A DNA stretch of 64,000 nucleotides from Mobula hypostoma. Lineage: Eukaryota. Location: contig NC_086108.1 in NCBI RefSeq assembly GCF_963921235.1, positions 85,190,001 to 85,254,000 of the forward strand. Reading direction: 5' to 3'. Shown one piece after another: positions 236-37,759 of this stretch. The position numbers were made by a program, and so were the translations under genes. Under the pieces are notes generated by a model, which saw only the letters and a list, made by a program, of their open reading frames with translations, did not search any database and had not been told where the DNA came from. How positions within the stretch are numbered: position 1 is the stretch's first letter; each line of letters opens with the position of its first letter.

Positions 236-370
236 CCTCCAACTTTCAAATCCCTTACTCACTCTTCCTTCAGTTAGTCCTGACGAAGGGTCTCGGCCTG
301 AAACGTCGACTGCACCTCTTCCTATAGATGCTGCTTGGCCTGCTGTGTTCACCAGCAACTTTGATGTATG
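236..370 (+). mobile_element. Young PLE 3'-end fragment nested in the older PLE, 11-bp TSD
   Basis: Near-identical to 32610-32748. Flanked by direct repeat tgactcacagt (225-235 and 371-381). Confidence 0.9.
276..311 (+). ncRNA. Minimal type I hammerhead ribozyme (PLE-associated)
   Basis: AGTC-CTGACGA-A-GGGT CTCG GCCT-GAAA-C-GTC-GACT: helix I AGTC/GACT, CUGANGA and GAAA cores, GUC cleavage triplet. Confidence 0.85.
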
Positions 371-1929
371 TGACTCACAGTTATCTTGACTATACCTTTT
401 CCCACCTTGTCACTTGTAAAAATGCTGTTCCGTTCTCTCAGTTCTCCCATTTCCGCTGCATCTGTTCTCAGGATGATACTATCTATTTCAGAACATTCGA
501 GATGTTTCTTCATGGGTTTACTCAAGGTGCTCGGTTTCAAAGAGCAGGGTTTCCCTTCCACTATCAACAATGCCATATTCACCTGCACATCCTCTATTCC
601 CCACATATCTGCCCTCATCCCATCCTCCCACCATCATAACAGAGATAATGTCTCCCTTATCCCTATCTACCACTCAATGAGCCTTCGTATCCAGTACATC
701 ATTCTCCATAACTTTTGCCATCTCTAATGGAATTCTAGTTCTAAACACTCCTCTCCCTCTCCCTTCTCTGCTTTCTGTAGGGATCACTCTATGTGACTCC
801 CTTGTCCACTCATCCCTCCCCACTGAGCTCCTTCCAGGCACTTAGCAAATGGCACAAGTGCCACAACTACTCCTACACCCTTCCCTCATCACCATCCTGG
901 TCCCCAAAAAGTCCTTCCACATGAGGCGACACTTCACCTGCAGGCCAGTCTGGGTTGTCTACTGTATCCGGTGCTCCCGGTGTGGCCTCCCCTCCTTCGG
1001 TGAGACCAGATGCAGATTGGGACACCACTTTATCAAGCACCACCACTCTGTCTGCTGCAAAAGGTATGATCTCCTTGTGGCTACTATTTTCACTTAACTT
1101 CCTATTCCCATTCTGACATGTCTATCCATGGCCTCCTCTAATATCTTGATGAGGTCAAACTCAGGTTGGAGGAACAACATCTCATATAATGTCTGAGAAA
1201 CCTCCATCCGTATGGCATAAATATTGATTTCCTCGAACTTCCAATAATTTATCCCCTCCGTCCTATTCCTTTTTTCCGTTCCTCTTTTTAGTTACCTTCT
1301 CACCACTTCATTTCTCCTCATCTGCCATCGCCTCCCTTTTTTCCCCTCCTCTTTCTGTTCCTTTCATGGTCGAGTGTCTTCTCTTATTTGATTCCTTCAC
1401 CTCTTCCTCATATCCTCTCCCACCCTCTTACTTCATGTCCACTCCCCACCCACCTGCCTTCCTCCTCAGCTGGTCTTACCTATCACCTACTAGATTGTAA
1501 TTTTTCCTCTCCCTCTACTTTCTTATTCTTGTTTCGTCTCCCTTCTTTCCCAGTCCTGATGGAGGGTCTCCTCTTAGCCCAAAGCACCATCTCTTTATTC
1601 CCCTCCATAGACTTGCTGAGTTACTCCATCATTTTGTGCGTGTTGCTCACATTTTCTAGCATCTGTAGAATCCCTTGTATTTAAGTTATTATATTTGTTT
1701 TTTCTGCTTTCAATACTAGCATATTGTGCTTGTATCAGTGTTTGCATTTTATAAGTTGTTCTTCTGGCTTTTATGATTGTAAATGTGCTTTTATAATTGC
1801 AATATCATGTAAATAAATCTTTTTATGTGTTTGGAGAAATGTATAATAACACCATTTAAAATAAATCTCATGGCATTAATATTTTGTTAAATTCTAAATT
1901 GAAGAAATTAAAAATTCTAGATGGAATAT

Positions 1930-2068
1930 GTAAACACAGGATCTCTGTAGATGCTGGGAATCCAGAGTAACACATATAAAATGCTGGAGGAACTTGGCAG
2001 GTCAGGCAGTGTCTATGGAAAGGAATGACCAGTCGACCGTTCAGGCCAAGGCTTTTCATTAGGACTGG
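1930..2068 (-). mobile_element. PLE 3' tail fragment with decayed hammerhead
   Basis: Reverse complement reads agtcctaatgaaaagccttggcctgaacggtcgact...ccagcatctacagagatcctgtgttt. Confidence 0.75.
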
Positions 2069-3379
2069 GTAATATGTATTTCATTTCTGGACTTTTTAAT
2101 CTTGTGAGATTCAATATCAGCTCAAAAATTTGACAGAGATTTCAGGTGAAAAAGATGCAACTACATAGGGATTGAAAGAATAAGAGGAAGGTATGTAATT
2201 TGTGCCTCTGTCATTGCCCATGCATTTCTTTAGAAGGCTTACTTGAGTTCTAGCTTATGTTTTATGCAGCAAACATAATGCACAATGGTGATATGAAAGC
2301 TGGTTTTAATTTTCTGACACAAATTAAAAATGCTGGTAACTTGTTACAATCTTTGAACCAATATTGCTAATGAAATCTGTAAATGGATGCTTAAGCTGTT
2401 CCCTGACTATGACAGAACAACAAACAGAAAGCAACTTGACATCTGTCTTTGAAAGATACTTTGTCACTGGAATAAAATTAGGAAACGCTGCAAACCCTCA
2501 GCAGGTTGGGCAGCAACTGTGAAAAGGAAAATAAAGTTAATGTTTCATGTCTGAGACCCTTCAGCTCTCCATCATTGATTTGACTTCTACACTGTCAGAC
2601 ATTTTGCAGCACTCAATTTAGTAAACAACAGTGAGGACACTCAGCAGGAGCACTGGCATTCATTAGCACAAAATAATTATTAAAACAATGTTCCACGGAT
2701 AACTTTCACAATCTTGTACACTGCTCAGCTTGTTGTTCCTTTCCACATCTTGCGGCACATCAGGCAGGCCAAGTAGCTAGCTTGACATTCAGCCCAGCAC
2801 AGATGGAAAGCATGCAAGGAGCTGGCTGGATTTGAACTCAGGATCACCTGCTTCAAAGGCTGCTACATCACCATTCCGCTATAACTTGGCTCAGCAAACC
2901 AACAGTTCTCCCCCCATTAATATAAACTTGGTCATAGATTGTGAGATTGTGAGATGGGGCTAAACTTTTTGGGTTTCTTGTCTTGCTTATTTTTAACCAT
3001 TTGTTTTCAACAGCATTGAAAAATTTGTACAACATTTATACACTAATTTGTAATATGTAAATATGATTGGTAAGGCCAGTATTTATTCCCTTTCATATCA
3101 CACTAGAAGTTGTGATGAGCTTCCTTCTTAAGCTACTGTAGAATCTCCGGTGAAGGTATTCCTATAGAGCTATTATGTATGGGATTGAGGAGTTAGACTC
3201 TGTGACACTTAAGCAACCTTGATATATGCATTTCCAGGTCAAGATGGTGGATGTGTGATTGAAGACAGAATCTTTCAAATGGTGGTGTTCCTTTCAATCT
3301 GTTGAACCTGTTCTGTGAGGGAGATTTCTGGTAAAGACACCATGGATTGAAGTTCTGCATTTTGTAGATGGCATATACT

Positions 3380-4051
3380 CTTCTTCTTCTTCTTCTTCTT
3401 CGGTTGTTTATTGAAATCCGATGATGACGTTCACTCCTTTAATGGTGAGAACTTTGATGACAATACAGTCCTATCCTGGACCCACAAGCTCTATTGCAGG
3501 TGGGACATGTATATGTGATAGTGGTGGCAACCATGGCTGCACTTCTCCTGGCTCTCTTCTGCTGTCTTCTGGTTGTTCTTTCCATCCCCAGAATACGAAC
3601 CCCGTCCCTACACAGCTGTCACCAAGTGGTATGGTCAGCAGCAACTTCCTCCAGGTCCTTGGATCTGATCCTGCACTTCCTTAAATCTCTCTTCATCTGA
3701 TCCTTATAGTGCTTCTTCGGCCTTCCAGCTGAGCATCGACCATGATGTAGCTGGCCGTATAACACTCTGCGGGGTAGCTGACATGGGGGCATCCTTATCA
3801 CGTGCCCCAGCCACTGCAGCTGACGCTGGGTGATCATGGCCTCAATACTCCTGCAGTTGGTTTTTACAAGTATTTCAGCGTGAGGCACCCGCTCACGCCA
3901 GGTAATTCCCAGGATGCGCTGGAGGCAGCTTTTGTGGAAGCGCTCCAAGGACTTGATGTGACAGCTGTAGGTTACCCAAGCTTCACAGCTATAAAGGAAG
4001 GTGGTGACATAGACCACTTGGTATACGGCGACCTTTGTGGAGGGAAGAAAT
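3380..4051 (-). mobile_element. RTE-clade LINE, 5'-truncated, (GAA)n tail
   Basis: ORF 3619-4059: TKVAVYQ..LYSCEAW..CLQRILGITW..QWLGHVIRM. (ctt)n at 3380-3401. TSD gatggca(t/c)atact at 3367-3379 and 4052-4064. Confidence 0.85.
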
Positions 4052-4369
4052 GATGGCACATACTACACCCATGATGCCCCAAGTAGCAGATGTGGTGAAT
4101 ATTCAATGTTCGCTTTCTAGCTAATAAGTAGGCTGCTTTGTCCTGAATGGTGTTCTGACTGCAGCTCCTGGAGTGGGTTCCATTGCATGGATGCCTGATT
4201 TTTTTTGGTGAAAGTTTTTGGAGTCAGGAGATAAGTTACTTTCTGCAGAATGCCCATTCTTTCTCATGTTGTAGGATAAGTATATTTGTAACAGGTCCAC
4301 CTAAGTCTCTGTTCAGTGATGTTGATGAGGGGAGATGGTGATGGAAGGCTGTTGAAAAGCTAATGTCGG

Positions 4370-5985
4370 AGGGAGGAGCTCAGTACGATGGCACCTAAAG
4401 GCGATCCCTTTGCTTGCATCTTCGGAAACAAGCTCTATTTCAGAATAAGAATCAGGTTTATTATCACTGGCATGTGTCCTGAAATTTGTTAACTTAACTG
4501 TAGCAGTTCAATACAATACATAATATGGAAGAAAAATAATACTACTAATAAGTAAATCAATTACAATATACCTATATTGAATAGATTAAAAATCGTACAA
4601 AAAACAGAAATAATATATATTTAAGAAGTGAGGTAACATCCAAGGTTTCAATGTCCATTTAGGAATCAGATGGCAGAGGAGAAGAAGCTGTTCCTGAATT
4701 GCTGAGTGTGTGCCTTCAGGCTTCTGTATCTCCTACCTGATGATAACAATGAGAAAAGGGCATAACCTGGGTGCTGGAGGTCCTTATTAATGGAAGCTAC
4801 CTTTCTGAGGCACTGCTGCTTGAAGATGTCCTGGGTACTTTGTAGGCTAGTACCCAAGATGGAGCTGAATAAATTTATAACCCTCTGCAGCTTCTTTCTG
4901 TTCTGCACAGTAGCCTCCAACCCCCATAGAAGACAGTGGTGCAGCCTATCAGAATACTCTATAGATGTTTTTGAGTGTATTTGTTGACATACCAAATCTC
5001 TTCAAACTACATATGAAGTATAGTTGCTGTCTTGCCTTCTTTATAACTGCATTCATATGTTGGGGCCAGGTTAGATCCTCAGAGATCTTGACACCCAGGA
5101 ACTTGAAACTGCTCACTCCCTCCACTTCTGATCTCTCTATGAGGATTGGTATGTGTTCCTTTGTCTCACCCTTCTAGAAGTCCTCAATCAGCTCTTTTGT
5201 CTTACTGACGTTGAGTGCCAGGTTGCTGCTGCGATGCCACTCCACTAGTTGGCATATCTCGCTTCTGTATGTCCTCTTGTCACCATCTGAGATTCTACCA
5301 ACATTGGTTGTATTATCAGCAAATTTATAGATGGTACTTGAGCTGTGCCTGGACTGCAAGACCGGTCGTTTCTCGATACGCTGAGGACGTGGCCTGGAAG
5401 ACTAGTGCGCCTTCAGTGTGCCGGATTTTTGTGCCTCTTTAGGCTGGTGAATTCGAGGTCGGTGCTCCCACTGTTGTGTCGTGGGAGTACACGGAAGATG
5501 GAAGCTGGCTGCTGGCTGTGTGCCCAGAGATCCGAGATCTTTGGGCATGGAGCTCGGCGAAAGTGACGCAACAGACATTTAACACCATAAGTTGGCGAGT
5601 TGTTTTGTTATGTCTCCCCTCTCGCTGTGAAATGGGGACATCTCTTTTTCCCTTGTTAGGGAGAGAAAGCGCCTGTGGTATGTCAAATTACCAGGTGAAC
5701 GAGTAGTCTTTGGGGTACTGCAAGTCTGTGTCTTTATTGATGCTTTGCTGCACGCTTCAGTGCTCGGTAGAGGGTGCAGATGCATTTTTGCTGGTAGGGG
5801 GCGGTTGCCACTTTGCTGTTGCTTATGCGTGGGAGGTGGAGCTGGGGGGGCTTTGGGGTTCTAATATTTAACTGTCATTCATTCTTTGGAGCATTCCTCT
5901 GTTTTTCGTGGATGTTTGCAAAGGAAAAGAATTTCAGGATGTATATGGTATACATTTCTCTGACATTAAATGTACCTATGAACCA
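4370..5985 (+). mobile_element. Non-autonomous LINE-derived element split by a Rex1-type insertion
   Basis: 5' part gggaggagc..gatggcacctaaaggcg (4370-4441) appears to resume at ~5349 and ends with a Rex-like 3' tail (ttcaggatgtatat...ctgacattaaatgtacctatgaacc). No coding capacity. Confidence 0.5.
4442..5348 (-). mobile_element. Rex1/Babar LINE 3' fragment
   Basis: YKFADNTTNVGRIS..LALNVSKTKELI and DLQHPGYALFSLLSSGRRYRS..FRNSFF. Tail (attct)n-like. Confidence 0.85.
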
Positions 5986-7030: not shown

Positions 7031-8635
7031 GCTGCGTCATGCATATCCTGAAAGTTTTTGACAAGGTTTGATAATGATAATTTTGTGGAGCACATCAGCT
7101 GATCACTAAGTTGCTATGTTTTTCAATTGCTTACACTGGGGGATTTGAATGGAAAAGAGCAATGAGGAACAAATGTAAGTTTGATTAATATATATTAATT
7201 TTCTGGATCATTTAAATATCCTTACTTATTTATCCACATTTCAATGATTGATATTCAAAGTTCTGTTAAAGCAATTTAATAAATTTTAACTTTATAATAT
7301 TTTTATTAGTTGCTGAAAGTTTTGACTGTTTAAGGAAGTCAGAAATATTTAGAAACATGTAAATCTTTTCAAGTTGTGCCAGTCTGCATAGTGTGTCTGT
7401 GTGGATTATTATCATCAACTTGTGGGTGGGATTTTTTGATATTTTTAATAATTGCTGAAAGGTGTAAAGATGTTGATTGTTTATGGAGATAAGAAATATT
7501 TGGATACTTAAAATTTTCAAGTTCTGGCAGCCTGCATAAGTGTGTGTGTGTTTAGATTACTCTCATTAACTTGTGTGTGGGAAATATTTTGCATTCCTTC
7601 CACCAAACCCTTCACCATTTATCGGAATTTATGCTTGGATGTCCTTACACAGCACCAGCCTCCATTACTGAAGTTCCAGTCTTCTTTGGTGAGTGAGTTG
7701 TACTCAGGCAAATTGCATAAAAGTGAAGATCATCCTCTTCACTGAAAGCAAACACTTTTAAACTGTTTAAAAAATTTTTTTTGCCATAGTGCACCCAGGC
7801 AACACCAGTTCCCAAACACGTCTCAAAGAAACAGATTGTCAGACTCAGTAAAGCTGGTGGCTAATAAGACATTTTTTTCCACTGGGTTTTTATAGCCAAC
7901 AATCTCAATATATCTGCCAAATTTACTTTGTTTTTGCCTTCAGCAGTACAGCACAAGGAAAGCATTATCCCAAAGCAAAAGCAACTTAAAATCTTATTTA
8001 GTTACTTATGTGTACTTGTCTTCTGGTCCACACCTGTCAGTGAACTTCTGATTTATATCCTGATATACTGTGAGATATGGTTAACTACCTTATCATTTTC
8101 ACATTTATCTGTGGGGGAAAGGTTCACTTTCAATGTTGAAGTTGTTCCCTTCCTTGCTGAAAAATTGTAGATGATGAAATTCACTTTTGAACTGATAAGC
8201 TCTGACTTTCTATCCAAAGTGATGTTGATTAGCAATGTTTATACTGTATGGCTAACTGTCTGATCCTCAAAAGGGGACGAGAATGTTAATTTATTGCTTG
8301 TTAAAGTACTGAACCAGATTTCTCAACCTGTATTGGAGTCAAGCAAGTTATTTAATGAACAGGTAGATCACTCCAGTGATAGAATTGCAGGTTACTTTTG
8401 AATGATGACATACAATGTCAGTTGTAATCGGCTTGCAACTTGGCTGCTAACTTTCTGCTAACTAGAAATCACATTACTGTTGATAGGAAAATGTTATGTT
8501 CCGAAACTTGCCACACTTGAAAGCACAGTTCAAAACACAGTTCTATAAATGGTCTGCATGCTTGTCGCCCAGAAAAAATTATCCAAGAAAAGTAAAAATC
8601 GAACTTTCACTTTGTTCCAAGGGATAGGATAGATA

Positions 8636-8848
8636 ACAACACTCACAACACGCTGGAGGAACCCTTTGTCAGGACTGAAGAGGGAAGGGGATAGGGCCTC
8701 TGCCCCTTCCCTCTTCAGTCCTGACGAAGGGTTCTGGCCCGAAACATTGACTGATCGTTTCCACGGATGCTGCCTGACCTGCTGAGTTCCTCCAGCGTGT
8801 TGTGAGTGTTGCTTTGACCTCAGCATCTGCAGAGTATTTTGTGTTTAC
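8636..8848. mobile_element. Short inverted PLE-tail insertion with 13-bp TSD and hammerhead variant (8717-8752, +)
   Basis: TSD gataggatagata at 8623-8635 and 8849-8861. Internal fold-back caggactgaagagggaagggg / ccccttccctcttcagtcctg. Confidence 0.85.
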
Positions 8849-10498: not shown

Positions 10499-10538
10499 TC
10501 CTATGCTGACTATGCCTGATCAAACACTGTCTTTGTAA

Positions 10539-10670
10539 GCAACACACACAAAATTCTGAAAGAATTCAGCAGGCTAGGCAGCATCTATGAAAAAGAATAC
10601 AGTCAATGTTTCGGGCTGAAACCCTTTGGCAGGACTGGAGAAATAAAGGTGGGGGTGGGGGAGAGAGAAA
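10539..10670 (-). mobile_element. PLE 3' tail fragment, decayed hammerhead at 10601-10636
   Basis: gcaacacacacaaaa...agtcaatgtttcgggctgaaaccctttggcaggact. Confidence 0.75.
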
Positions 10671-11590: not shown

Positions 11591-11679
11591 TTCAACTGGT
11601 TCCATTCTTTTGGACTCTCCTCTTCATCTTAACATAAAATTGCTTTACTTTAATCTTACCTGCCGGTGACATTTTGTGA

Positions 11680-12690: not shown

Positions 12691-12694
12691 TGTC

Positions 12695-15252: not shown

Positions 15253-15303
15253 TGAATGTGCCCAAGAGAAAATGAATTTCAGGGTTATATATGCTGACAT
15301 ATA

Positions 15304-17532: not shown

Positions 17533-17643
17533 GAGAACACCTTATATTCCGTCTGGCTAGCCTCCAACCTGATGGCATGAACACTGACTTCTCTAACTTC
17601 CGTTAATGCCCCTTCGCCCCTTCTCCCCTTCTTACCTCATCCT

Positions 17644-17694
<51 letters not shown>

Positions 17695-18100
17695 TTTGTC
17701 TGTCTATCTATCTTTTCCACTTTCTTTCTCTCTTTTTTTCTCCCTCTGTCCCTCTCACTATATCTTCCTCTGATGCTCCCCTCCCCTTTTATTTCTCCCT
17801 AGGCCTCCCGTCCCATGATCCTCTCTCTTCTGCAGCCTTGTATTTTCTTGCCAATCAACTTTCCAGCTCTTAGCTCCATCCCTCCCCCTCCTGTCTTCTC
17901 CTATCATTTTGGATCTTCCCCTCCTCCTCCCACCTTCAAATCTCTTACTATCTCTTCTTTCAGTTAGTCTTGATGAAGGGTCTCGGCCCGAAACGTCGAC
18001 TGTGCTTCTTCTTATAGATGCTGCCTGGCCTGCTGCGTTCACCAGCATTTTGTGTGCGTTGCTTGAATTTCCAATATCTGCAGATTTCCTTGTGTTTACT
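17533..18100 (+). mobile_element. PLE 3' fragment with (TTTA)n expansion and near-intact hammerhead (17966-18001)
   Basis: GIY-YIG C-terminus (ccttatattccgtctggctagcctccaacctgatggcatgaac). AGTC-TTGATGA-AGGGTCTCGGCCC-GAAAC-GTC-GACT with a C3U change. Confidence 0.88.
17643..17697 (+). repeat. (TTTA)n microsatellite
   Basis: About 13 tandem tttA units inside the PLE 3' UTR. Confidence 0.95.
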
Positions 18101-18351: not shown

Positions 18352-18918
18352 GATCGCTTCCACCAGAAAAAGCAGGATATCCCAGTGGCCACCCATTTTA
18401 ATTCCACTTCCTGTTCCCATTCTGATATGTCCAGCCATGGCCTCCTCTACCACTGCGATGAGGCCGCACTGAGGTTGGAGGAGGAACACCACATATTCCG
18501 TCTGGGTAGCCTCCAATCTGATGGCATGAACATCGATTTCTCAAACTTCTGGTAATGACCCCTCCCCTTCACTATTTCCCATCTCCTTTTCCCTCTCTCA
18601 CCTGATCTGCTTGCCTGCCCATTGCCTTCCTCTGGTGCTCCTCCCCCTTTTCCTTTCTTCAATGGCATTCTGTCCTTCTCTGGCCCTGTATCTCTTTCAA
18701 CATACAATTTCCCAGCTCTTTACTTCACCCCTTCCCCCTCCCCGTTTTACCTATCACGGTGTGTTTCTTCCTCCCCCTCACCCACCTTCTAGCTCTGACT
18801 CCTCATCTATTTTTCTCCAGTCCTGCTGAAGGGGCTCGGCCCAAAGTGTCAACTGTTTACTCTTTTCTATGGATGCTGCCTGGCCTGCTGAGTTCCTCCA
18901 GCATTTTGTGTGTGTTGC
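18352..18918 (+). mobile_element. PLE 3' fragment (GIY-YIG end plus tail)
   Basis: KQDIPVATHFNSTSCSHSDMS..RLEEEHHIFRLGSLQSDGMNIDFSNF; decayed hammerhead at 18819-18854. Confidence 0.88.
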
Positions 18919-19795
18919 AATGATCTAGTCTTGTCTGTAACATACGTGGTTTATGAAATCTAGTGTGTGCAATCTTTTAAGAATTCTTCCATGTGATTCT
19001 CTGCTCTCTATGTTTATATTTGCACATAATTATTGCCTGAGTTGGAGAATAGAAAAATGCCCTGCCTCTCACAGTAAGTTATTTTTATTTAAAAAAGCAT
19101 TTTGTTAGTAAAAGTTACCAGGATTTCTACAATATGTTAAAGAGAGATACTGATATACTTTCAATCAAAAGTGTCAATTCCTTACACATCTGTTGCATGA
19201 GTAAAGAATTTTTTTACTGGATATACACTATGTTTGTTTCAAGCTGATTAAATAATCTGTCTCTGTATCACTGTCTGCCAGTGTCTTCCTCTTATTTTCC
19301 TATCTGTTTCTCTCTCTTTCTCCCTCATGGTGGTGGCATTCTTAGATTTCGGTCAGTGGTTGTTGAAGCCCTTTGGGAGAACTAAGGGCACGCTATCTCG
19401 GCTGAGGTACTATCTGTTTGATGGAGCATTAAAACTGATACTTGCTTAGGTTGATACGGAAATCATGTTGGATTATTTCAGCAAAAGGAGGGTGTTACAT
19501 TTGTGAATATTTATTCCTCAATATTTATCCACAACATTAACTAAGGTGAAATTGTTCAGGCTTGTATAAAAAGTAGACAGTATTGTGATAGCCAGTCACT
19601 ACTGATCTTGAAAATTCAATAATTATGAATTATAGGAAGTGGAATGGGAAATTCATGTAACTGTTTAGTCTCCTTTCATTTGCAGTTTTTTTTCTGTGTA
19701 CGTAAGCACACTTTAAAAGTATTTATTAAATTGTTTTGGATATTCTGACAAGTGAAATGTACTGTACATTGATATGCAGGTTGTTTCTTTCATAT

Positions 19796-19884: not shown

Positions 19885-20166
19885 TTATTTATTTATTTAT
19901 TGAGATACAGCACTGAGTGAGCCATATCGGCCCTTCGAGCCATGCTGCCCAGCAATCCTTGACTTAACTGCAGCCTAATCATGGGACAACTTACAAAGAC
20001 CAATGAACTTACTAACCAGTATGTCTTTGGACTGTGGGAGGAAACTGGAGCACCCTGAGGAAACACGCGGTCACAGGGAGAACGTACAAATTCCTCACAG
20101 GCAGCGACGGAAATTGAACCTGGTTTGCTGGTACTGTAAAGCGTTGTGCTAACCACTACTCCACCC
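19885..20166 (-). mobile_element. tRNA-derived V-SINE-type SINE
   Basis: Reverse strand has an A-box-like gtagtggttagc, B-box-like ggttcaattt, V-domain gtttcctcagggtgctccagtttcctcccacagtccaaagac and (aaat)n tail. Confidence 0.8.
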
Positions 20167-20632
20167 TGGGCAGCTTCCAACCTGATGGCATAGATGTCGA
20201 TTTCTCAAACTTCTGGTAATTACCTCCCCCCTCCCCTCACCATTTCCCCATTCCCGTTTCCCTCTCTCACCTCATCTGCTTACCTGCCCATCACCTCCCT
20301 CTGGTGTTCCTCCCCCTTCCCTTTCTTCCATGCTCTTCTGTTCTCTCCTATCAGATTCCCCTTCTCCAGCCCTTTCTCTTTTGCCAATCAACTTCCTGGC
20401 TCTTTACTTCACCCCTCCCCCTCCATTTTCACATACCACTTTCCACCTTGTATTTCCTTCCCTCCTCACACCTTCTTCTTCTGACTTCTTCCTTTCCTTT
20501 CCAGTCGTGATGAAGGGTCTTGGCCCAAAATGTGGACTGTTTACTCTTTTCCTTAGCTGGCCTGCTAAGTTCCTCCAGCATTTTATGTGTGTTGCTTTGG
20601 ACTTCCAGCATCGGCAGCTTTTCTTGTGTTTG
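20166..20632 (+). mobile_element. PLE 3' fragment, decayed hammerhead at ~20503-20538
   Basis: ctgggcagcttccaacctgatggcat...cagtcgtgatgaagggtcttggcccaaaatgtggact...ccagcatcggcag. Confidence 0.8.
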
Positions 20633-23754: not shown

Positions 23755-25165
23755 ACTTAAGATTCAAGATTGTTCATAAAGGAAAGCAAAATAATTGTTA
23801 TTCCGTATCCAATACATCACAAGTAAACGCAATAAGATAAAGAATACAAGGATAAAAATACAATAAATAAACTGTAAATACATAACATAGCTTTTATATA
23901 TATGGATTGATTGTATGTCCATAAAGTGTTGCTAGGCACAGGAGTGTCTGTACTTAAGGTGGCAGAAAGGAGATGATAAAGTAGTGGTGGAGGGGTGGGT
24001 TAGTAGGTGGAGGTGTTGCTTGGGGAAAGTAACTGTTTTTGAGCCTGGTGGTCCTGGCATGGATGTTACATAGCCGCCTCCCTGAAGGGAGTGGGATAAA
24101 CAGTCCTTGAGCTGGGTGGGTGGAATCTTACATGATGTGGCTGGTCCTTTTCTGGCACCTTTCTGTACATATGTCCATGATGGTGGGTAGTTTGGTGCTG
24201 GTGATGTGTTGGGCAGTTTTGACTACCCATTGTAGAGCATTCCTGTCAGCCACAGTACAATTTCCATACCATGCAGTGATGCAGCAGTTTAGGATACTCT
24301 CTGCTGTGCATCTGTAGAAGGACGTGCATATGGATGTGCAAAGCCCAGCTCTCTTCAGGCTTCTTAGATTGTAGAGGTGTTGTTGAACTTTCCTGACTGT
24401 GTGAAATGTGTTCTGGGTCCATGACAGGTTGTGCACCCAGAGGTACACCCAGGAGTTTGACCTGCTCGCTATTTCTACTGCTGTACTGCTGAAGTAAAGG
24501 GTGCTCGGATTGGTACACGTCCTCTTGAAGTCAATAATTTTCTCCTTTGTTTTGTTGACATTGAGGAAGTGGTTATTTACCTGGCACCAGGCCTTGAGCT
24601 CTTCCACTTCCTCTCTGTAGGCTGACTCATCTTTGTTGGTGATGAGCCCTGCCACTATCATATCATTGGCGAACTTGACAATGTGATTACTTGGGTGTTT
24701 GGCTTTGCCGTTGTGAGTGCAGAGTGTACAGAAATACTCTCAGCACACAGCCACGGGGGTCTTCTGTGTTGAGGATGATGGGGAGGGAGGACTGTTTGTG
24801 TATCCTGACTATCTGAGGTCTGTTTGCTATGAAGTCCAACACTCAATTGCACACAGGTGTATTTAGACCGATGATTAGGAATTTGTTCACCAGAGCCTGT
24901 GAAACAATAGAGCTGAATGCCGAATTGAAATCCAGAAACAGCGTTCTGACGTTTCTCCTTATTTCCCGGGTGTGTCAGGGCCAGGTGCATTTCAGACAGC
25001 ATTTGTCATGGAACAGTTCTGCTGGCAAGTGTCCAATGTGGCAAGTTTTTGACATGTGGCATTACCAGTTGTTCAAAGCACTTCATGATGATTGACATCA
25101 ATACCACAGGGCAGTAGTCATTTAGTTCTAAAGGTGTAAAGTTTTTCGGTACAGGGATGATGGTA
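23755..25165 (-). mobile_element. Rex1/Babar LINE RT relic
   Basis: [61 protein letters not shown]. Confidence 0.88.
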
Positions 25166-25464: not shown

Positions 25465-26560
25465 CTGTGGAGGTCAGGTTGTTGGGTGCATCTGAGGCGG
25501 AGATTGATTGGTTCATGATTGGACATGGCATCAAAGGTTGTAGGGAGAAGGTCGGGAGTGGGGCTGAGGAGGGGAGAAAAAGATCAGCCATGGTTGAATA
25601 GTGGAGCAGACTCAATGGGCCAATGTCCTAATTCTGCTCCTATGTCTCACGGTCTTTCTTGATCTTTTTTCTGGTAACTTTATAATCCTTAAGAGCTCTA
25701 TTTGATTTTAACTTTATGTTAGTTTCCTTTCTTCTCTTGACTGAATCTGAACATCTAAGTTGCCCTTATTCTGCCATTCTTCTTCCTTTTTACTGGAGTA
25801 TACCTACCATGTACTCTGTGCAGTTGGTCTTTAAACACAGTCCGCATGTCAGATGTAGATTTACCCAAAAGCAGCTGTTTCAAAGCAACCCTCCCCAGTT
25901 CTTGCCTGATATTCTTGTAATTTGCCCAGTTCCAATGTTATACTCCCCTTTAAGGTCCACACTTAAGCTTATCTATAACTATATTAAAATGTAAGTAGTT
26001 GTGATCACTGTTGCCTAACTGTTCTCTCACTGGAAGATTAATCACCTGGACAGATTTGGTATCTAACACCAGACATAGTATAGCCCCTCCTCTTGTTGGA
26101 TTATTTACGTATTGATTTAAGAAACTCTTCTGGATGCATCTAATAACTTCTGTCCCATTTAAACTTCTTGAATCAAGGAGGTCCCAGTCTATGTTAGGGA
26201 AGTTGAAGTCACCGACTACAACAATCCTGGTTGTCCTTGCACCTTTTTCTGACCTGCCTGCATGTCTGTTCCTCAATGTTCCGGTGACTATTGGCAAGTC
26301 TGTACTGTAATATAAACCCTTCAGAATTATTGCTACTTTCTTATTTTTGAGCTATAGATTCAGTGGATGAGCCCTCCATTTTGTCCCCTATGAGTGCAGA
26401 TGTGATATTGTCCCTGATTAATAGCACAAATCTCCCTGCCCCCACCTCTCTTTTACCTCCTTCCCCATCTTTTGGAAAGCATCAAAACTGTGGGCCATTA
26501 AGCATCCATATCTGACCTCCTTTCAAATATGTTCATCACACTTAAACATAATACTCCTTG
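25465..26560. mobile_element. CR1 fragments (plus 3' end 25465-25655; minus endonuclease region 25660-26560)
   Basis: VVVGDFNFPNIDW..NPTRGGAIL..LGNSDHN. Confidence 0.8.
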
Positions 26561-28580: not shown

Positions 28581-29081
28581 ATTGGGTCTCCTGTCGCTAT
28601 TGCTTTTCTTGACTTTACCCTTCCCTGTTGAACCTCAGGGCCAGCCACAATGTCACCGCCATTGCTGCTGATGCTGAGTCCTGTGACAGGTCAACCCATT
28701 TCCCCCAGCTGAGCAGAATGGCCCCAGGGCAACCCTGCACTGACTGCCTACTTCCCTTACTTCTCCTAGTGGTCACCTGTATTCAGGGTGTGAGCACCTT
28801 GGTAAAAGCCTCATCGACAAACGCGCCAGCTCCTTGATGATCTTCAGTACCTTTTCACTTCATCTTAAGTGAAGTTGTAAATGGGAACTAATGATAAATT
28901 TTGAGCTATCATAAGTGCAATGTGTCACAGCTGATGTGCTAAGCAATGAAAGAATCCATTAAAAAGGGTCATGAAAGATTGGTAAACAACAGGAATTCTG
29001 CAGATGCTGGAAATTCAAGCAACATACATCAAAGTTGCTGGTGAACGCAGCAGGCCAAGCAGCATCTATAGGAAGAGGCGC

Positions 29082-29117
29082 AGTCGACGTTTCAGGCCGA
29101 GACCCTTCGTCAGGACT
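29082..29117 (-). ncRNA. Minimal type I hammerhead ribozyme
   Basis: Reverse complement is identical to 276-311. Confidence 0.85.
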
Positions 29118-29409
29118 AAATGAAGGAGGAGTGAGTAAGGGATTTGAAAGCTGGAGGGGGAGGGGGAGATGCAAAATGATAGGAGAAGACAGGAGGGGGA
29201 GGGATAGAGCCGAGAGCTGGACAGGTGATAGGCAAAAGGGGATACGAGAGGATCATGGGACAGGAGGCCTAGGGAGAAAGACGGGGGGGGTGACCCAGAG
29301 GATGGGCAAGAGGTATATTCAGAGGGACAGAGGGAGAAAAAGGAGAGTGAGAGAAAGAATGTGTGCATAAAAAGGAGTAACAGCTGGGGTACGAGGGGGA
29401 GGTGGGGCC

Positions 29410-30903
29410 TAGCGGAAGTTAGAGAAGTCAATGTTCATGCCATCAGGTTGGAGGCTACCCAGACGGAATATAAGGTGTTGTTCCTCCAACCTGAGTGTGG
29501 TTTCATCTTTACAGTAGAGGAGGCCGTGTCTGACATGTCAGAATGGGAATGGGATGTGGAATTAAAATGTGTGGCCACTGGGAGATCCTGCTTTCTCTGG
29601 CGGACAGAGCGTAGATGTTCAGCAAAGCGGTCTCCCAGTCTGCGTCGGGTCTCACCAATATATAAAAGGCCACATCGGGAGCACCGGACGCAGTATATCA
29701 CCCCAGTCGACTCACAGGTGAAGTGATGCCTCACCTGGAAGGACTGTTTGGGGCCCTGAATGGTGGTAAGGGAGGAAGTGTAAGGGCATGTGTAGCACTT
29801 GTTCCACTTACACGGATAAGTGCCAGGAGGGAGATCAGTGGGGAGGGATGGGGGGGACGAATGGACAAGGGAGTTGTGTAGGGAGCGATCCCTGCGGAAT
29901 GCAGAGAGAGGGGGGGAGGGAAAGATGTGCTTAGTGGTGGGATCCCGTTGGAGGTGGCGGAAGTTACGGAGAATAATATTTTGGACCCGGAGGCTGGTGG
30001 GGTGGTAGGTGAGGACCAGGGGAACCCTATTCCTAGTGGGGTGGTGGGAGGATGGAGTGAGAGCAGATGTACGTGAAATGGAGGAGATGCGTTTAAGAGC
30101 AGAGTTGATAGTGGAGGAAGGGAAGCCCCTTTCTTTAAAAAATGAAGACATCTCCCTCGTCCTAGAATGAAAAGCCTCATCCTGAGAGCAGATGCGGCGG
30201 AGACGGAGGAATTGCGAGAAGGGGATGGCGTTTTTGCAAGAGACAGGGTGAGAAGAGGAATAGTCCAGATAGCTGTGAGAGTCAGTAGGCTTATAGTAGA
30301 TATCAGTGGATAAGCTGTCTCCAGAGACAGAGACAGAAAGATCTAGAAAGGGGAGGGAGGTGTCGGAAATAGACCAGGTAAACTTGAGGGCAGGGTGAAA
30401 GTTGGAGGCAAAGTTAATAAAGTCAACGAGTTCTGCATGCGTGCAGGAAGCAGCGCCAATGCAGTCGTCGATATAGCGAAGGAAAAGTGGGGGACAGATA
30501 CCAGAATAGGCACGGAACATAGATTGTTCCACAAACCCAACGAAAAGGCAGGCATAGCTAGGACCCATACGGGTGCCCATAGCTACACCTTTAGGTTGGA
30601 GGAAATGGGAGGAGCAAAAGGAGAAATTATTAAGAGTAAGGACTAATTCCGCTAGATGGAGCAGAGTGGTGGTAGAGGGGAACTGATTAGGTCTGGATCC
30701 AAAAAGAAGCGTAGAGCTTTGAGACCTTCCTGATGGGGGATGGAAGTATATAAGGACTGGACATCCATGGTGAAAATAAAGCGGTGGGGGCCAGGGAACT
30801 TAAAATCATCGAAAAGTTTAAGAGCGTGAGAAGTTTCACGAACATAGGTCGGAAGGGATTGAACAAGGGGTGATAAAACAGTGTCGAGGTATGCAGAAAC
30901 GAG
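29410..30903 (-). pseudogene. PLE RT/GIY-YIG polyprotein (partial; frameshifts near 30690 and 29530)
   Basis: ORF 29435-30580 (381 aa) plus an upstream frame in 30652-30903; the C-terminus shifts after SHSDMS compared with 32068-32361. Confidence 0.88.
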
Positions 30904-31269
30904 ATAGCAGAGTTTTCTCCTCCATACCTGGCAGCACTTATCCTTCAACCAACACCATGATAAAACTAATTGTCTGCTAAATATTTTAGTGCTAGTTGTG
31001 GAAATTAATGCACTTAAACCAAGTGCTGGCTTCTTATGTTGCAATAGTTCCTTCATTTCCAAAAGTAATTCATCGATCATGAGACATCTTTGATATCCAG
31101 AATCATAAAAGGTGCTATAAAACTGGGCGTCCCCCAGTCTTTATTAGTAAGTAGCTGTCCCCTTCTCTATATCTAATGATCACTTTGATGAAAGATTAGA
31201 AAGTGCTAAGAATACTCAGCAGATCTGGAAACACGTGAAGAGAGAGAAAATAAGTCACCAATCTTTCAT

Positions 31270-32042
31270 ACATCAAAGTTGCTGGTGAACGCAGCAGGCC
31301 AAGCAGCATCTATAGGAAGAGGCGCAGTCGACGTTTCAGGCCGAGACCCTTCGTCAGGACTAACTGAAAGAAGAGTGAGTAAGGGATTTGAAAGCTGGAG
31401 GGGGAGGGGGAGATGCAAAATGATAGGAGAAGACAGGAGGGGGAGGGATAGAGCCGAGAGCTGGACAGGTGATAAGCAAAAGGGGATACGAGAGGATCAT
31501 GGGACAGGAGGCCTAGGGAGAAAGACGGGGGGGGGTGACCCAGAGGATGGGCAAGAGGTATATTCAGAGGGACAGAGGGAGAAAAAGGAGAGTGAGAGAA
31601 AGAATGTGTGCATAAAAAGGAGTAACAGCTGGGGTACGAGGGGAAGGTGGGGCCTAGCGGAAGTTAGAGAAGTCAATGTTCATGCCATCAGGTTGGAGGC
31701 TACCCAGACGGAATATAAGGTGTTGTTCCTCCAACCTGAGTGTGGTTTCATCTTTACAGTAGAGGAGGCCGTGTCTGACATGTCAGAATGGGAATGGGAT
31801 GTGGAATTAAAATGTGTGGCCACTGGGAGATCCTGCTTTCTCTGGCGGACAGAGCGTAGATGTTCAGCAAAGCGGTCTCCCAGTCTGCGTCGGGTCTCAC
31901 CAATATATAAAAGGCCACATCGGGAGCACCGGACGCAGTATATCACCCCAGTCGACTCACAGGTGAAGTGATGCCTCACCTGGAAGGACTGTTTGGGGCC
32001 CTGAATGGTGGTAAGGGAGGAAGTGTAAGGGCATGTGTAGCA
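31270..32042 (-). mobile_element. PLE 3' fragment, copy 2
   Basis: Direct repeat of ~29025-29797; GIY-YIG ORF 31680-31979. Confidence 0.93.
31326..31361 (-). ncRNA. Minimal type I hammerhead ribozyme
   Basis: agtcgacgtttcaggccgagacccttcgtcaggact is the reverse complement of the intact motif. Confidence 0.85.
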
Positions 32043-32745
32043 TCACTTCACCTGTGAGTCGACTGGGGTGATGTACTGCGTCCGGTGCTCCCGATGTGGC
32101 CTTTTATATATTGGTGAGACCCGACGCAGACTGGGAGACCGCTTTGCTGAACATCTACGCTCTGTCCGCCAGAGAAAGCAGGATCTCCCAGTGGCCACAC
32201 ATTTTAATTCCACATCCCATTCCCATTCTGACATGTCTATCCACGGCCTCCTCTACTGTAAAGATGAAGCCACACTCAGGTTGGAGGAACAACACCTTAT
32301 ATTCCGTCTGGGTAGCCTCCAACCTGATGGCATGAACATTGACTTCTCTAACTTCCGCTAGGCCCCACCTTCCCCTCGTACCCCAGCTGTTACTCCTTTT
32401 TATGCACACATTCTTTCTCTCACTCTCCTTTTTCTCCCTCTGTCCCTCTGAATATACCTCTTGCCCATCCTCTGGGTCACCCCCCCCCGTCTTTCTCCCT
32501 AGGCCTCCTGTCCCATGATCCTCTCGTATCCCCTTTTGCTTATCACCTGTCCAGCTCTCGGCTCTATCCCTCCCCCTCCTGTCTTCTCCTATCATTTTGC
32601 ATCTCCCCCTCCCCCTCCAGCTTTCAAATCCCTTACTCACTCTTCTTTCAGTTAGTCCTGACGAAGGGTCTCGGCCTGAAACGTCGACTGCGCCTCTTCC
32701 TATAGATGCTGCTTGGCCTGCTGCGTTCACCAGCAACTTTGATGT
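32040..32745 (+). mobile_element. PLE 3' fragment, copy 3 (inverted), intact GIY-YIG C-terminus
   Basis: ORF 32068-32361: YCVRCSRCGLLYIGETRRRLGDRFAEH..RLEEQHLIFRLGSLQPDGMNIDFSNFR*. Followed by TSD atgaaagattggt (32746-32758). Confidence 0.93.
32654..32689 (+). ncRNA. Minimal type I hammerhead ribozyme
   Basis: agtcctgacgaagggtctcggcctgaaacgtcgact. Confidence 0.85.
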
Positions 32746-33334
32746 ATGAAAGATTGGTGACTTATTTTCTCTCTCTTCACGTGTTTCCAGATCTGCTGAG
32801 TATTCTTAGCACTTTCTAATCTTTCATCAAAGTGATCATTAGATATAGAGAAGGGGACAGCTACTTACTAATAAAGACTGGGGGACGCCCAGTTTTATAG
32901 CACCTTTTATGATTCTGGATATCAAAGATGTCTCATGATCGATGAATTACTTTTGGAAATGAAGGAACTATTGCAACATAAGAAGCCAGCACTTGGTTTA
33001 AGTGCAGTAATTTCCACAACTAGCACTAAAATATTTAGCAGACAATTAGTTTTATCATGGTGTTGGTTGAAGGATAAGTGCTGCCAGGTATGGAGGAGAA
33101 AACTCTGCTATCCTTCGAGTTATGAGATCTTTTACTTCCACCCTGTTAGCTCAGCAAGTTTTGGATGTTTACAGAGGAAGAAAAAGCTAACAATAAAATG
33201 GTAAGTGAAGAGCACTGTTCAAAGTCTTTACATTTTTTCTTTTGTCTGGTGACCAGAACTGCACATGTTACCCCAAATGTGGCCTAAACAAAGTTTTATA
33301 GAGCTGCAACCTGACTTACTAACTTTTATATGAG

Positions 33335-33610: not shown

Positions 33611-34509
33611 CTTACTGTCTGACCAATGAAGGCAAGGATGCCATATGCTTTCTTTACAACCCTATCCTGTGATCTTGACACTTCAGGGAGCTATGGACTT
33701 ACACTCCAAGATCCCCCAATGCTCCTAATGGTTCTGCCATTTACTTTGTAATTTGACTTGCGTATGGTTTTATTAACTTCATAGGTTGCTGACTGGTACT
33801 GCTATTCTTTTTCACCTGTCCAATAGCAGTTGAATGTTTTAAGCATTATCTGTATCACTAGTTACATTATGGATGTAATTTCAGTGCAAGTTTCCAGATA
33901 CTGGCAGAATCAAAGATCCTCCCATTGTGAATCCCTATCCTGTTTTTGCTTTCCTTTGTGAATATAAACTGCTGGAGGATCTCAGGCAGTGAAGGGAAAT
34001 GGACCATCGAGGATTTGGGTAGAGAAGAGATGGTACTTCTTTACAGATACTGTCTGAGCTACTTTGTTCCTCCAGGACATTTTTTTTTTGCATCTGCATT
34101 CTCTTGTGCTTCCCCTTGGTTCCCTTTCCTTTGTAGTTGGAGTTTCTTCACAACTCACTGGAATGGAACCTTCAGTGAAAGTATTTAACAGAAAAGGGTC
34201 TGCTCCAGATGAGATATGGCAAAACATTGCAGAGACCATGCAAGCAAACCTCCTGGAAAATCTCTGACCAGAGATTTCAACTCTAAACATACAAGGAAGG
34301 GCCACATTTTGTTATCAAAACTGGAGATGGTTTACACTAAACACAACAAGTGTTGAACCTGTTTGATTCAGAATTAAAGGGCTGCCATGAAGCTTCGTCG
34401 GTAGTTTATTAAAGACTTTGTTGGAACATGCTAACAAAAGAGTAATTCTTCAAACATACTTTGCTAAGTGTGAGATGGTGACAGTTGTAAGGAGATAATG
34501 CAAATGATA

Positions 34510-34816
34510 TAACATATAGCAATTACAGCATGGAAACAGGCCATCTCGGCCCTTCTAGTCCGTGCCGAACTCTTACTCTCACCTAGTCCCACCGACCTGC
34601 ACTCAGCCCATAACCCTCCATTCCTTTCCTGTCCATATATCTATCCAATTTAACTTTAAATGACAACATTGAACCTGCCTCAACCACTTCTGCTGGAAGC
34701 TCGTTCCACACAGCCACCACTCTCCGAGTAAAGAAGTTCCCCCTCATGTTACCCCTAAACTTTTGCCCTTTAACTCTCAACTCATGTCCTCTTGTTTGAA
34801 TCTCCTCCACTCTCAA
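34510..34816 (-). mobile_element. CR1 3' fragment
   Basis: TRGHELRVKGQKFRGNMRGNFFTRRVVAVWNELP. Confidence 0.9.
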
Positions 34817-35009
34817 TGATGTGTGGATAAGTTCCACAGAGCACAGAAAACAGACACGCATCCACCAGGACGTACCTTGCCTTCTTCCAATATTCCCCAC
34901 CACCATCGCACTCCATCACACTGGACCCAACTTAGTTCCTCAACTAGTATTACAGCTAAGTAATTTTTAATCTTCCTAGCAACTGCTGAAACATTTCTTG
35001 TGCCACAAT

Positions 35010-35340
35010 TAGAACATAAAACATGGAACACTACTGCACAGCACAGGCTCTATGGCTCATAATGTTGTGCCTATCTTGTAAGTGTAAGATCAGTCAAACA
35101 CTTCCTTCCTAAATAGCCCTCCATTTTTCTATCATCCATGTGTCTACGTAAGAGTTCTTAAATGTCCCTAATGTATCTGCCTCAACCACTCTGTGCAAAA
35201 AAGCTGACCTCTGACATTCCCCCCCCTACACTTTTCTCCGATAACCTAAAAATTATGTCCCCTTGTTTCACCCATTTCTGCCCGAGGAAAATGTCTCTGG
35301 CTATCCACTTGATCTATGCCTCTTATCATCTTGTGCACCT
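35010..35340 (-). mobile_element. CR1 3' fragment (degenerate)
   Basis: agaacataaaacatggaaca tail; cctcttatcatcttgtgcacct. Confidence 0.7.
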
Positions 35341-35984
35341 ATTGGTGACCTTAGCTGACTGGTGATAAAAAATAATCAGCCCAGAAGATACATTCCTGTT
35401 GGTTGGCTCGAAAGGCAGATATAACACACACTTTCCTTGTTGGATTCAGTTCTGTTCTTAATTCACCTGTGATTAATTTTGACAGTTGACTGCTAATTTA
35501 AAAGCTCGTGTAAAATCTAAGCATTTAAATGAAGCCAAACCATGATGTGGAAGGAGTAAATATCACCAGTGAACCTGGGAACACTGTTTAGATGCTGGAT
35601 TATATTAGTCATGCACCACAGCTGGAGATGACTTATCCCTTTCACACCGTGTAGAAGTACAGCCCTCAATTAAAAGCAGCAGGGACAGTTTGTACCTTTG
35701 AGCACAATCAGTAGACTGGTGACTGTGGATAAGTTATCATGATACACCCTACTCAAATTTCCTTCCTGGCCTCTTCATTTTTGAGGTCAATGTTTTAATT
35801 TTGTTCATAGTTATCTGGGAAAGTTCAGTTCATCCCTTTGTCAGGGCGTTGCCTCCTAATTTCATTTGCTGGAGCTGGATACATGTTGCAAGGGAGGTTC
35901 AAATCACCTCGCCCTTTTGGATGGGGAGGAGGTGTGGCATTGCTGAACCAGAGCCCAGATTTTGACACTCAACCTTTTTATCTG

Positions 35985-36458
35985 ACTACTACTACTACGT
36001 CGACTCAGGCCTAGGGGGCCAGCGTTGGGCACGATGATGGACTCTCCACTTCTCCCTCTCCCTCATCAGTGTGTTCAGTTCATCTACATTAGCCGCGCCA
36101 CTGTCTTCTGGGAGCGTGTTGACCATAGCCTTGGGAGGGCGCCCAGGGTTCATCTTCCCATGCTTCGGCTGCCATATGACAACTAGGCTGGCAGGTAGCT
36201 CGGGGTGGCGAAGACAGTGCCCCGCTAGTTGCAGTCTTCTCGCCTCAATTTTAGTGGTGAGCATCGGTAGGTTGTTATAGAGCTCAACGTTCGTCATGTG
36301 CTGTTGCCAACTCACGTCAAGAGCCATCCGGAACGTTCATGTATAGCAACCATCTAGAGACTTTCGCATAGTCTTGGTGAGTGTCCACGTCTCGCATCCA
36401 TATGTGAGAATGGGCTCTATGACTGCTAAGAAAATCCTCTTTTTAAACCCCCTGGACT
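35985..36458 (-). mobile_element. RTE-clade LINE 3' fragment, (TAG)n tail
   Basis: MALDVSWQQHMTNVELY..RRLQLAGHCLRHPE..GRP; (act)n at 35986-35998. Confidence 0.85.
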
Positions 36459-36795
36459 CTCGCTTAAATTTACAATTGACTTTCTTAGCCATGAACTAGA
36501 ATGAAGTAGCTTGAAGATTGGAGAACAAATTGTACAGTGAAGTTGACAGTGGTGTTAGTGCTAGTTGGTGCAGGTTGCAGGGCAGTGGAAGTGCTGCAGT
36601 TGGGAGCAGGAAGATGGAGGCCTCTCTGCCTTAGTTAGGTGATGTTGAATAGTGAGAGACAAAATGAAATGGTTGTGATGAGAGGAACAGTCAAGGAAGC
36701 ATAAATTGTTAAATGCATTCAAAGAAAGACTTGCAACACACATCAAAGTTGCTGGTGAACGCAGCAGGCCAGGCAGCATCTCTAGGAAGAGGCAC

Positions 36796-36831
36796 AGTCG
36801 ACGTTTCAGGCCGAGACCCTTCGTCAGGACT
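36796..36831 (-). ncRNA. Minimal type I hammerhead ribozyme
   Basis: Reverse complement of the intact motif. Confidence 0.85.
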
Positions 36832-37723
36832 AACTGAAGGAAGAGTTAGTAAGAGACTGTGTTGCTTAAATTTCCAGCATCTGCAGAATTCCTGTTGTTT
36901 GCGTGAACCGTCGACTGTACCCCTTCCTAGAGATGCTGCCTGGCCTGCTGCGTTCACCAGCAACTTTGATGTGTGTTGCTTGAATTTCCAGCATCTGCAG
37001 AATTCCTGTTGTTTGCGCACTTATCCTTGTAAGCGGAACAAGTGCTACACATGCCCTTACACTTCCTCCCTTACCACCATTCAGGGCCCCAGACAGTCCC
37101 TCCAGGTGAGGCGACACTTCACCTGTGAGTCGGCTGGGGTGATATACTGTGTCCGGTGCTCCCAATGTGGCCTTCTATATATTGGTGAGACCCAATGCAG
37201 ACTGGGAGACCGCTTTGCTGAGCACCTATGCCCTGTCCACCAGAGAAAGCAGGATCTCCCAGTGGCCACACATTTTGATTCCACATCTCATTCCCATTCT
37301 GACATGTCTATCCACGGCCTCCTCTACTGTAAAGATGAAGCCACACTCAGGTTGGAGGAACAACACCTTATATTCCGTCTGGGTAGCCTCCAACCTGGTG
37401 GCATGAACATTGACTTCTCTAACTTCTGCTAATGCCCCACCTCCCTCTTGTACCCCATCCGTTATTTATTTATATACACACATTCTTTCTCTCTCTCTCC
37501 TTTTTCTCCCTCTGTCCCTCTGACTATACCCCTTGCCCATCCCCTGGGTTCCCCCCCTTGTCTTTCTCCCTGGACCTCCTGTCCTATGATCCTCTCATAT
37601 CCCCTTTGCCAATCACCTGTCCAGCTCTTGGCTCCATCCCTCCCCCTCCTGTCTTCTCCTATCATTTTGTATCTCCCCCTCCCCCTCCCACTTTCTAATC
37701 TCTTACTAACTCTTCCTTCAGTT

Positions 37724-37759
37724 AGTCCTGACGAAGGGTCTCGACCTGAAACGTCGACT
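37724..37759 (+). ncRNA. Minimal type I hammerhead ribozyme
   Basis: agtcctgacgaagggtctcgacctgaaacgtcgact; helix II has U-A instead of U-G, which preserves pairing. Confidence 0.85.

Follow-up and report, generated by a model that had tools for sequence, protein, structure and literature searches.

Minimal hammerhead ribozyme motifs in a Mobula hypostoma locus probably belong to a very high-copy Neptune-type Penelope-like element

A stretch of 64,000 nt from Mobula hypostoma (NC_086108.1, positions 85,190,001 to 85,254,000; hereafter the window) carries repeated 36-nt motifs with the layout of a hammerhead ribozyme, which raises the question of what these motifs belong to and whether they still cut RNA, singly or in pairs. 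We conclude that they are probably the minimal hammerhead ribozymes (min-HHRs) of a very high-copy Neptune-type Penelope-like element (PLE), aided in the master copies by the protein of the element's open reading frame (ORF) and passively dispersed in dead, truncated copies. Judged from their sequence, the ribozymes of the window copies themselves are most likely inert.

Six intact minimal type I hammerheads of 36 nt are present (Table 1), at the coordinates and on the strands given in a preliminary description of this locus. In the motif, AGUC makes the 5' strand of helix I; then come CUGACGA, a single extra A, helix II (GGGU/GCCU enclosing CUCG), GAAA-C-G-U-C, the predicted cut, and GACU. 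Five of the six are identical, and the copy at 37724 is an ACCT variant. In all six, the core (CUGANGA ... GAAA ... UH, in type I order) is intact, the extra nucleotide that separates position 9 from 10.1 is A, and the palindromic positions 15.2-16.2 read ACGT without a helix III stem, which bears out the earlier statement that helix III is a loopless ACGT palindrome. A min-HHR descriptor that demanded the exact core, a helix I of at least 4 bp and a helix II of at least 3 bp matched exactly these six motifs, and it matched nothing in each of 30 block shuffles. The second round of a profile search of the window gave 25 matches at E<=0.5, mostly decayed and with partial and downstream-only pieces among them, in agreement with the many decayed copies first reported. 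Two further copies had been called near-intact; both are present but damaged. The motif at 17966-18001 (+) has C3 changed to U in the catalytic core, and the motif at 8717-8752 (+) has ACGTCG changed to ACATTG, two CpG-type transitions with which the ACGT palindrome is lost. Likewise, the helix II variants were said to keep pairing. The G-U variant does still pair, but GCCC is confined to damaged copies and the helix II changes within the window are one-sided (G-U to G-C, U-G to U-A), not compensatory. A register with A10.1-U11.1 and no extra nucleotide was rejected, as its fold is less stable and relatives keep the extra A plus G10.1. A search with hammerhead models, which had been proposed as a check, gave no support: an Rfam scan of the window at E<=1 returned 13 matches, none of them a hammerhead, and the hammerhead models scored none of the motifs. 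MicroRNA-like Rfam matches at 8654-8740 were discarded; they lie on the inverted junction of two PLE ends, which forms a hairpin that scores weakly against such models, and all fall under the gathering score.

The motif lies in a pyrimidine-rich 3' untranslated region (UTR), ~290 nt behind the stop codon of a reading frame for reverse transcriptase (RT) and a GIY-YIG endonuclease (EN). This single ORF is present in the window in broken form and comprises an RT with YIDD, a CX4CxxC linker finger (CKWNKCYTC) as well as, at the C-terminus, a GIY-YIG with the CxxC..H..H (CCHH) motif; the EN piece at 32041 matches the Pfam GIY-YIG family with an E of 1.2e-4. A protein search recovered 259 relatives of 649-2000 aa, mostly 40-56% identical and ~800-950 aa long when complete, and the best named relative is a shark protein at 71% identity, in keeping with a host among the cartilaginous fish. 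The CX2-5CxxC linker finger marks Neptune or Nematis (PMC8557442). Less directly, the hammerheads of the relatives L014 and L051 match the one published for the Acropora Neptune element at almost every letter. The sequences point to a Neptune-type, endonuclease-containing (EN+) PLE, with "Neptune-type" taken to leave room for Nematis, which has the finger in common with Neptune. Like the Neptune EN+ PLEs of Craig et al. 2021 (PMC8557442), the element has a C-terminal GIY-YIG with CCHH and the linker finger, and it shows 5' truncation, an inverted 5'-truncated partner and a 30-40-bp tail at one end; unlike the elements described there, it has no full-length copy in the window, where all PLE copies are 5'-truncated. 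These PLE hallmarks (5' truncation, inverted partner, optional 30-40-bp tail) are directly visible in the window. The motif had been assigned to the PLE 3' end, and it does lie in the 3' UTR, but it is not terminal: ~59-104 nt of element follow, either ~59-65 nt (short class) or ~95-104 nt (with tail). The two 3'-end classes, together with head-to-head units in which just one end has the longer tail, fit two RT start sites (PMC11167929) and the published PLE architecture (PMC8557442). The family is very abundant, with 12850, 6377, 35 and 44148 contigs matched to 591 nt of it in four sequencing runs, counts that do not represent copy number.

The 100 nt behind the hammerhead (28983-29081 (-) and equivalents) are 68-92% conserved between subfamilies, and the 3' UTR ahead of it is only ~56% alike for distant subfamilies. 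A consensus fold of these 100 nt from 13 window copies contained only a 4-bp hairpin with no two-sided change, which leaves a structured 3' domain unsupported. The conserved block is likely the region where the ORF protein binds and RT starts.

As the six intact copies are not independent, relatives fetched by protein similarity alone were used to ask whether the fold is selected. The sample consisted of 80 loci with 37 endonuclease ends that had at least 260 nt behind them, and 74 antisense or ORF segments served as controls. The exact core was found 89-214 nt downstream of EN in 18/37 ends and in 1/74 controls, and a core within two substitutions in 26/37 ends versus 6/74 controls; behind the remaining 11/37 endonucleases the core was not found. 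For covariation, 16 exact-core loci were retained after two duplicates were dropped; their choice took no account of the helices. In this set, 46/48 cells of the first three helix I pairs are Watson-Crick, whereas 2000 shuffles averaged 25.8 and reached 37 at most, and G10.1-C11.1 and the extra A after A9 occur in 16/16. An alignment of four window and 15 relative motifs, whose rows were partly pre-selected for pairing, has 94.7% paired cells and two-sided change in 7/8 pairs, and slid controls are 9-41% paired. The two-sided covariation comes from the distant relatives, not from the window copies. Covariation of the helices, on which the preliminary description had made its reading depend, was thus found, and the comparison of sequences indicates that the hammerhead fold (two helices plus core) is kept by selection at the level of the clade. 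With the motif behind RT/GIY-YIG, this upholds the assignment of the motifs as PLE hammerheads of the minimal type I kind, which lack a stem at helix III. One relative, L012, is a complete unit of ORF between pseudo-long terminal repeats (pLTR-ORF-pLTR), with 201-nt direct repeats, a hammerhead in both pLTRs and the motifs 3066 nt apart. A hammerhead in the 5' pLTR upstream of the ORF start is seen at L012:910-4176, L026:2138-4806 and L039:48-400. The more distant relatives L053 (1-283/3838-4122) and L064 (1-202/3783-3954) have short terminal repeats; their hammerhead is confined to the region upstream of the ORF, ~540-770 nt ahead of where the protein alignment begins, and within 290 nt after the endonuclease there is none.

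The motifs can be compared with several known systems. Cervera and de la Pena (2014; PMC4209133) define the min-HHR by an extra nucleotide, G10.1-C11.1, a palindrome at 15.2-16.2 and a U-rich upstream flank, and they report thousands of solo copies and, in fish, occurrence in Xena, Poseidon and Neptune elements. The motifs studied here share with those the type I order, CUGANGA plus one extra nucleotide, GAAAC-GU-H, a palindromic 15.2-16.2 with no loop 3, a short helix I, a U/pyrimidine-rich upstream flank, and a distribution as mostly solo copies of 5'-truncated elements with pairs ~3 kb apart in full elements. They differ from that consensus in that the six intact window motifs have G10.1-U11.1 instead of G-C, and in a short 4-bp helix II; G10.1-C11.1 is a consensus trait and not absolute, and the published alignment includes G-U examples (PMC4209133). 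Cartilaginous fish are not among the species in Table S1 or the Fig. S3 alignment of PMC4209133, and a literature search combining Penelope, hammerhead and shark found no shark PLE hammerhead by title or start of abstract. Retrozymes have been reported in one chondrichthyan genome (bioRxiv 10.64898/2026.07.22.740005). Non-LTR retrozymes likewise have type I, PLE-derived hammerheads, which in vertebrates work better as dimers (PMC7229834; bioRxiv 10.64898/2026.07.22.740005), but they are non-coding tandem monomers of 170-400 nt with canonical hammerheads. Retrozyme identity was rejected, as the intact window motifs are scattered or in inverted arrangement and sit next to ORF remnants rather than forming tandem monomers. 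In the Anolis Poseidon element PAc, the hammerhead cleaves only with the ORF protein, hammerhead mutants insert normally in vitro, and no RNA-seq reads end at the cleavage site (Frangieh et al. 2024, PMC11167929). The PAc hammerhead lies upstream of two RT start sites that set an optional tail, and the window has two matching end classes. Unlike the element studied here, PAc belongs to another clade and has no linker finger, and its ORF starts inside the hammerhead, whereas the ORF of the Neptune-like L012, L026 and L039 begins well downstream.

Other explanations must be set against this evidence. A chance hammerhead look-alike multiplied by transposition would also produce six matching copies, since these stem from one or two masters, and would sit well with the silence of the Rfam hammerhead models; the position-specific core and the two-sided covariation in relatives selected by protein rule it out, and its chance is negligible. 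A more specific proposal in the preliminary description was that the same-strand copies at 29082 and 31326 pair in one transcript and cut it. Both motifs are intact and on the minus strand, and their spacing of 2244 nt is similar to that in published pLTR pairs, at 2.1-3.6 kb (PMC4209133); in that work the Schistosoma min-HHR monomer showed no cleavage and dimers and trimers cleaved weakly in vitro. However, the unit is not pLTR-ORF-pLTR: its ORF is truncated and frameshifted, and the 31326 piece has no tail, and after it come ~360 nt of non-PLE DNA, an inverted duplicate of the flank 32749-33111. Along the 715 nt common to the copies, 11 columns distinguish 29082 from 32654; the 31326 copy agrees with 29082 at the first five and with 32654 at the last six. 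Such a mosaic with no private change suggests that the copy arose recently by template switch or conversion, or else is an artefact of assembly. The region 30905-33111 forms an almost perfect inverted repeat of 1.07 kb, into which the 360 nt of non-PLE flank fall, around a spacer of 60 nt, and it could have arisen by template switch, gene conversion or misassembly. In minus-strand read-through from the right, the antisense of the 32654 copy would bind all 36 nt of the 31326 motif within a hairpin of ~1 kb; only a start inside the 31326 piece, should a promoter lie there, would avoid this pairing. The predicted energies are also unfavorable, with -9.5 kcal/mol for the double hammerhead as compared to -20.0 kcal/mol for two monomers in their minimum free energy (MFE) folds, a difference of 10.5 kcal/mol, and -28.3 kcal/mol for the best dimer (cofold MFE) of the window variant. 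The scanned frames contained no host exon, though the locus may lie in an intron. A working pair at 29082 and 31326 is therefore unlikely, and in vivo cutting of a shared transcript by a double hammerhead of the two is very unlikely indeed. The broader claim that the motifs are active only as dimers holds in part. The dimer model is published (PMC4209133) and, from this analysis, appears plausible for full-length elements, probably with protein help; it is incomplete in that one PLE hammerhead needed its ORF protein (PMC11167929).

A further possibility is that the hammerhead of the young subfamily has lost catalysis, through G10.1-U11.1 and a competing core-pairing fold, and persists as a passenger or a protein-binding structure. 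The monomer is predicted to prefer an inactive rod, with the core GACG bound to CGUC, at -10.0 kcal/mol, as compared to -6.0 kcal/mol for helix I plus II. Within its natural context (~155-195 nt), the probability of helix I is 0 to 0.08. Most relatives that have A or U at position 7 do better, with a double hammerhead 1.1-2.5 kcal/mol above two monomers in L012, L001, L015 and L064; the value is 6.5 kcal/mol in L039, and L003 (C7) folds like the window motif. As such models ignore tertiary contacts and proteins, folding argues for a need of help, not for impossibility. Position 11.1 (window 29094) is U in the six intact motifs and in both 92%-identical sister subfamilies, and C, pairing with G10.1, in the older window copies and in 16/16 distant relatives. 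By depth, C makes up 20%, 29%, 34% and 76% in the four runs, so that U is the majority in three and the variant has been widely amplified; either it still works or cleavage is not needed. The latter would be in line with the normal insertion of PAc mutants in vitro (PMC11167929) and with Naiad PLEs, which thrive without the motif (PMC8557442). On the other hand, the core is otherwise perfect, G-U still pairs, only two of 40 listed variant rows (of 106) fall in the 36-nt motif, both at helix ends, and the same competing fold is predicted for the G-C relatives L003 and L039 and is thus not special. A literature search on G10.1/C11.1/U11.1 found no treatment of U11.1. We regard the loss of catalysis as doubtful but of real weight. 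Less probable is a 3' splice site that overlaps helix I (YTNAY, pyrimidine tract, YAG, then UCCUGA), through which splicing in the 5' pLTR would change or gate the ribozyme, as reported for Drosophila virilis Penelope, where an intron ends at helix I (PMC4209133). YAG opens helix I after a pyrimidine tract in 11/11 window copies examined, and in 6/11 a YTNAY places its A at -21 to -23, across two UTR lineages that are ~56% alike. But the copies have a common ancestry, pairing with the CU of helix I accounts for the AG, and in a UTR that is 80-84% pyrimidine YTNAY is expected by chance at 8-25% of positions. Moreover, AG within 6 nt before C3 occurs in 0/16 distant relatives, and no GT..AG joint ends there among 15 listed of 52 joints, with donors covered only within 29118-29520. 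The signal is accordingly unlikely to be a functional acceptor. A combined version, a regulated switch in which the acceptor forms the helix I 5' strand, so that a splice made in the 5' pLTR would rewrite helix I and gate cleavage, while the weakened G10.1-U11.1 ribozyme of the amplified young subfamily leaves dense protein-activatable cleavage sites genome-wide, is quite improbable. Branch-like pentamer, pyrimidine tract and YAG are found together at 29116-29140 (-), 37700-37725 (+), 18795-18820 (+) and 20480-20504 (+), and TACTAAC is present in the 36796 and 37724 copies.

The explanation that we favor is the Neptune-type PLE with protein-aided master copies. As judged from relatives and the literature, a full-length master would repeat its end at the 5' side as a pLTR, giving one transcript with two motifs ~3 kb apart that would complete helix III via the ACGU palindrome and cut after GUC. 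Cutting would be slow and would probably occur only with the element's ORF protein as chaperone. We infer that RT starts ~60 or ~100 nt downstream of the motif, on RNA with an uncut 3' motif, so that nearly every insertion would carry the motif as a passenger and disperse it. The window copies would be 5'-truncated, partly rearranged dead insertions in which the six motifs are intact on account of their young age and not of any maintenance in place, and in older motifs CpG transitions would bring decay. Several points weigh against this account. The data are assembled contigs only, in which no cleavage, expression or RNA end is observed. No full-length copy of the family was seen, and the 5' pLTR is taken from relatives at ~50% protein identity. 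The six motifs carry G10.1-U11.1, unlike 16/16 relatives, and prefer the inactive rod, so that in this subfamily the motif may have ceased to cleave, master copies included. Finally, protein assistance has been shown for one Poseidon element only (PMC11167929).

Table 1 PLE copies and hammerhead motifs in the window, by position.
Feature	Position	Strand	Detail
Older decayed PLE body (RT to EN)	40-1242	+	interrupted by the 236-370 insertion; tblastn 40-1052; self-BLAST 374-1242, ~71% to 29414-30279
Young 135-nt 5'-truncated PLE end	236-370	+	11-bp target-site duplication 225-235 / 371-381
Intact min-HHR in the 236-370 insertion	276-311	+	predicted cut 307/308
Decayed 3' end with motif	1544-1680	+	profile search
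Other decayed ends	1935-2072 (-), 2497-2565 (-), 10521-10648 (-), 41960-42065 (-), 53091-53210 (+)		profile search
Head-to-head pair of short PLE 3' ends	8623-8848		+ copy holds the damaged motif 8717-8752
5'-truncated PLE end, older subfamily	17536-18099	+	motif 17966-18001: G10.1-C11.1, C3 to U
5'-truncated PLE end, more distant subfamily	18359-18925	+	decayed motif 18819-18854
5'-truncated PLE end, more distant subfamily	20166-20631	+	decayed motif 20503-20538
Longest PLE copy	28983-30905	-	first residue corresponds to 394 in an 889-aa relative; frame broken twice, near 30667-30706 and 29534; RT YIDD, CX4CxxC linker, GIY-YIG, ~290-nt 3' UTR, hammerhead, 59-nt downstream block, 40-nt tail
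Intact min-HHR	29082-29117	-	predicted cut 29086/29085
~360 nt of non-PLE DNA	30905-31265	-	inverted duplicate of flank 32749-33111, 1 difference
PLE 3' piece without tail, mosaic	31266-32042	-	copy comparison
Intact min-HHR	31326-31361	-	predicted cut 31330/31329
Inverted 5'-truncated PLE end without tail	32041-32748	+	intact EN C-terminus
Intact min-HHR	32654-32689	+	predicted cut 32685/32686
Downstream-only pieces	34035-34082, 55242-55416 (head-to-head)		profile search
Complex insertion, sister subfamily	36724-37857		~92% to the 29-kb copy
Part: short inverted end	36724-36856	-	
Part: tail piece	36857-36900		
Part: partial end starting inside motif	36901-37018		
Part: EN-to-tail copy	37019-37857	+	
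Intact min-HHR	36796-36831	-	predicted cut 36800/36799
Intact min-HHR, ACCT variant	37724-37759	+	predicted cut 37755/37756

The surrounding DNA was searched for host genes with Pfam, using 21, 150 and 98 window frames (plus three relatives) from 320 frames of at least 62 aa. In these frames, which lie outside the PLE blocks and mostly before 59.6 kb, and among which short exons would escape, no host exon was found; the only matches were RVT_1, endonuclease, Tc1/Sleeping Beauty, GIY-YIG, ALKBH8_N and one sub-threshold REP match. The mobile-element remnants include an RT (RVT_1) of the long interspersed element (LINE) type at 48850-49755 (-), an endonuclease fragment at 25953-26351 (-) and a Tc1/Sleeping Beauty-type transposase fragment at 57219-57659 (-). 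The ALKBH8_N matches lie in repeat-rich DNA, in the frames 24131-24739 (-) and 4952-5173 (-), which we presume to be LINE tails rather than a host gene. A pattern search of viral contigs gave 16 matches, none confirmed.

The kind of arrangement described here is already known, having been described in 2014, and the analysis adds a lineage, not a mechanism. If the splice-acceptor overlap were true, it would extend the coupling of intron and hammerhead in Drosophila to a vertebrate clade. PLE hammerheads elsewhere are weak as dimers, protein-dependent in one element and dispensable for insertion in vitro. A very abundant family with natural G-U and G-C variants represents a convenient natural experiment on whether catalysis matters for amplification.

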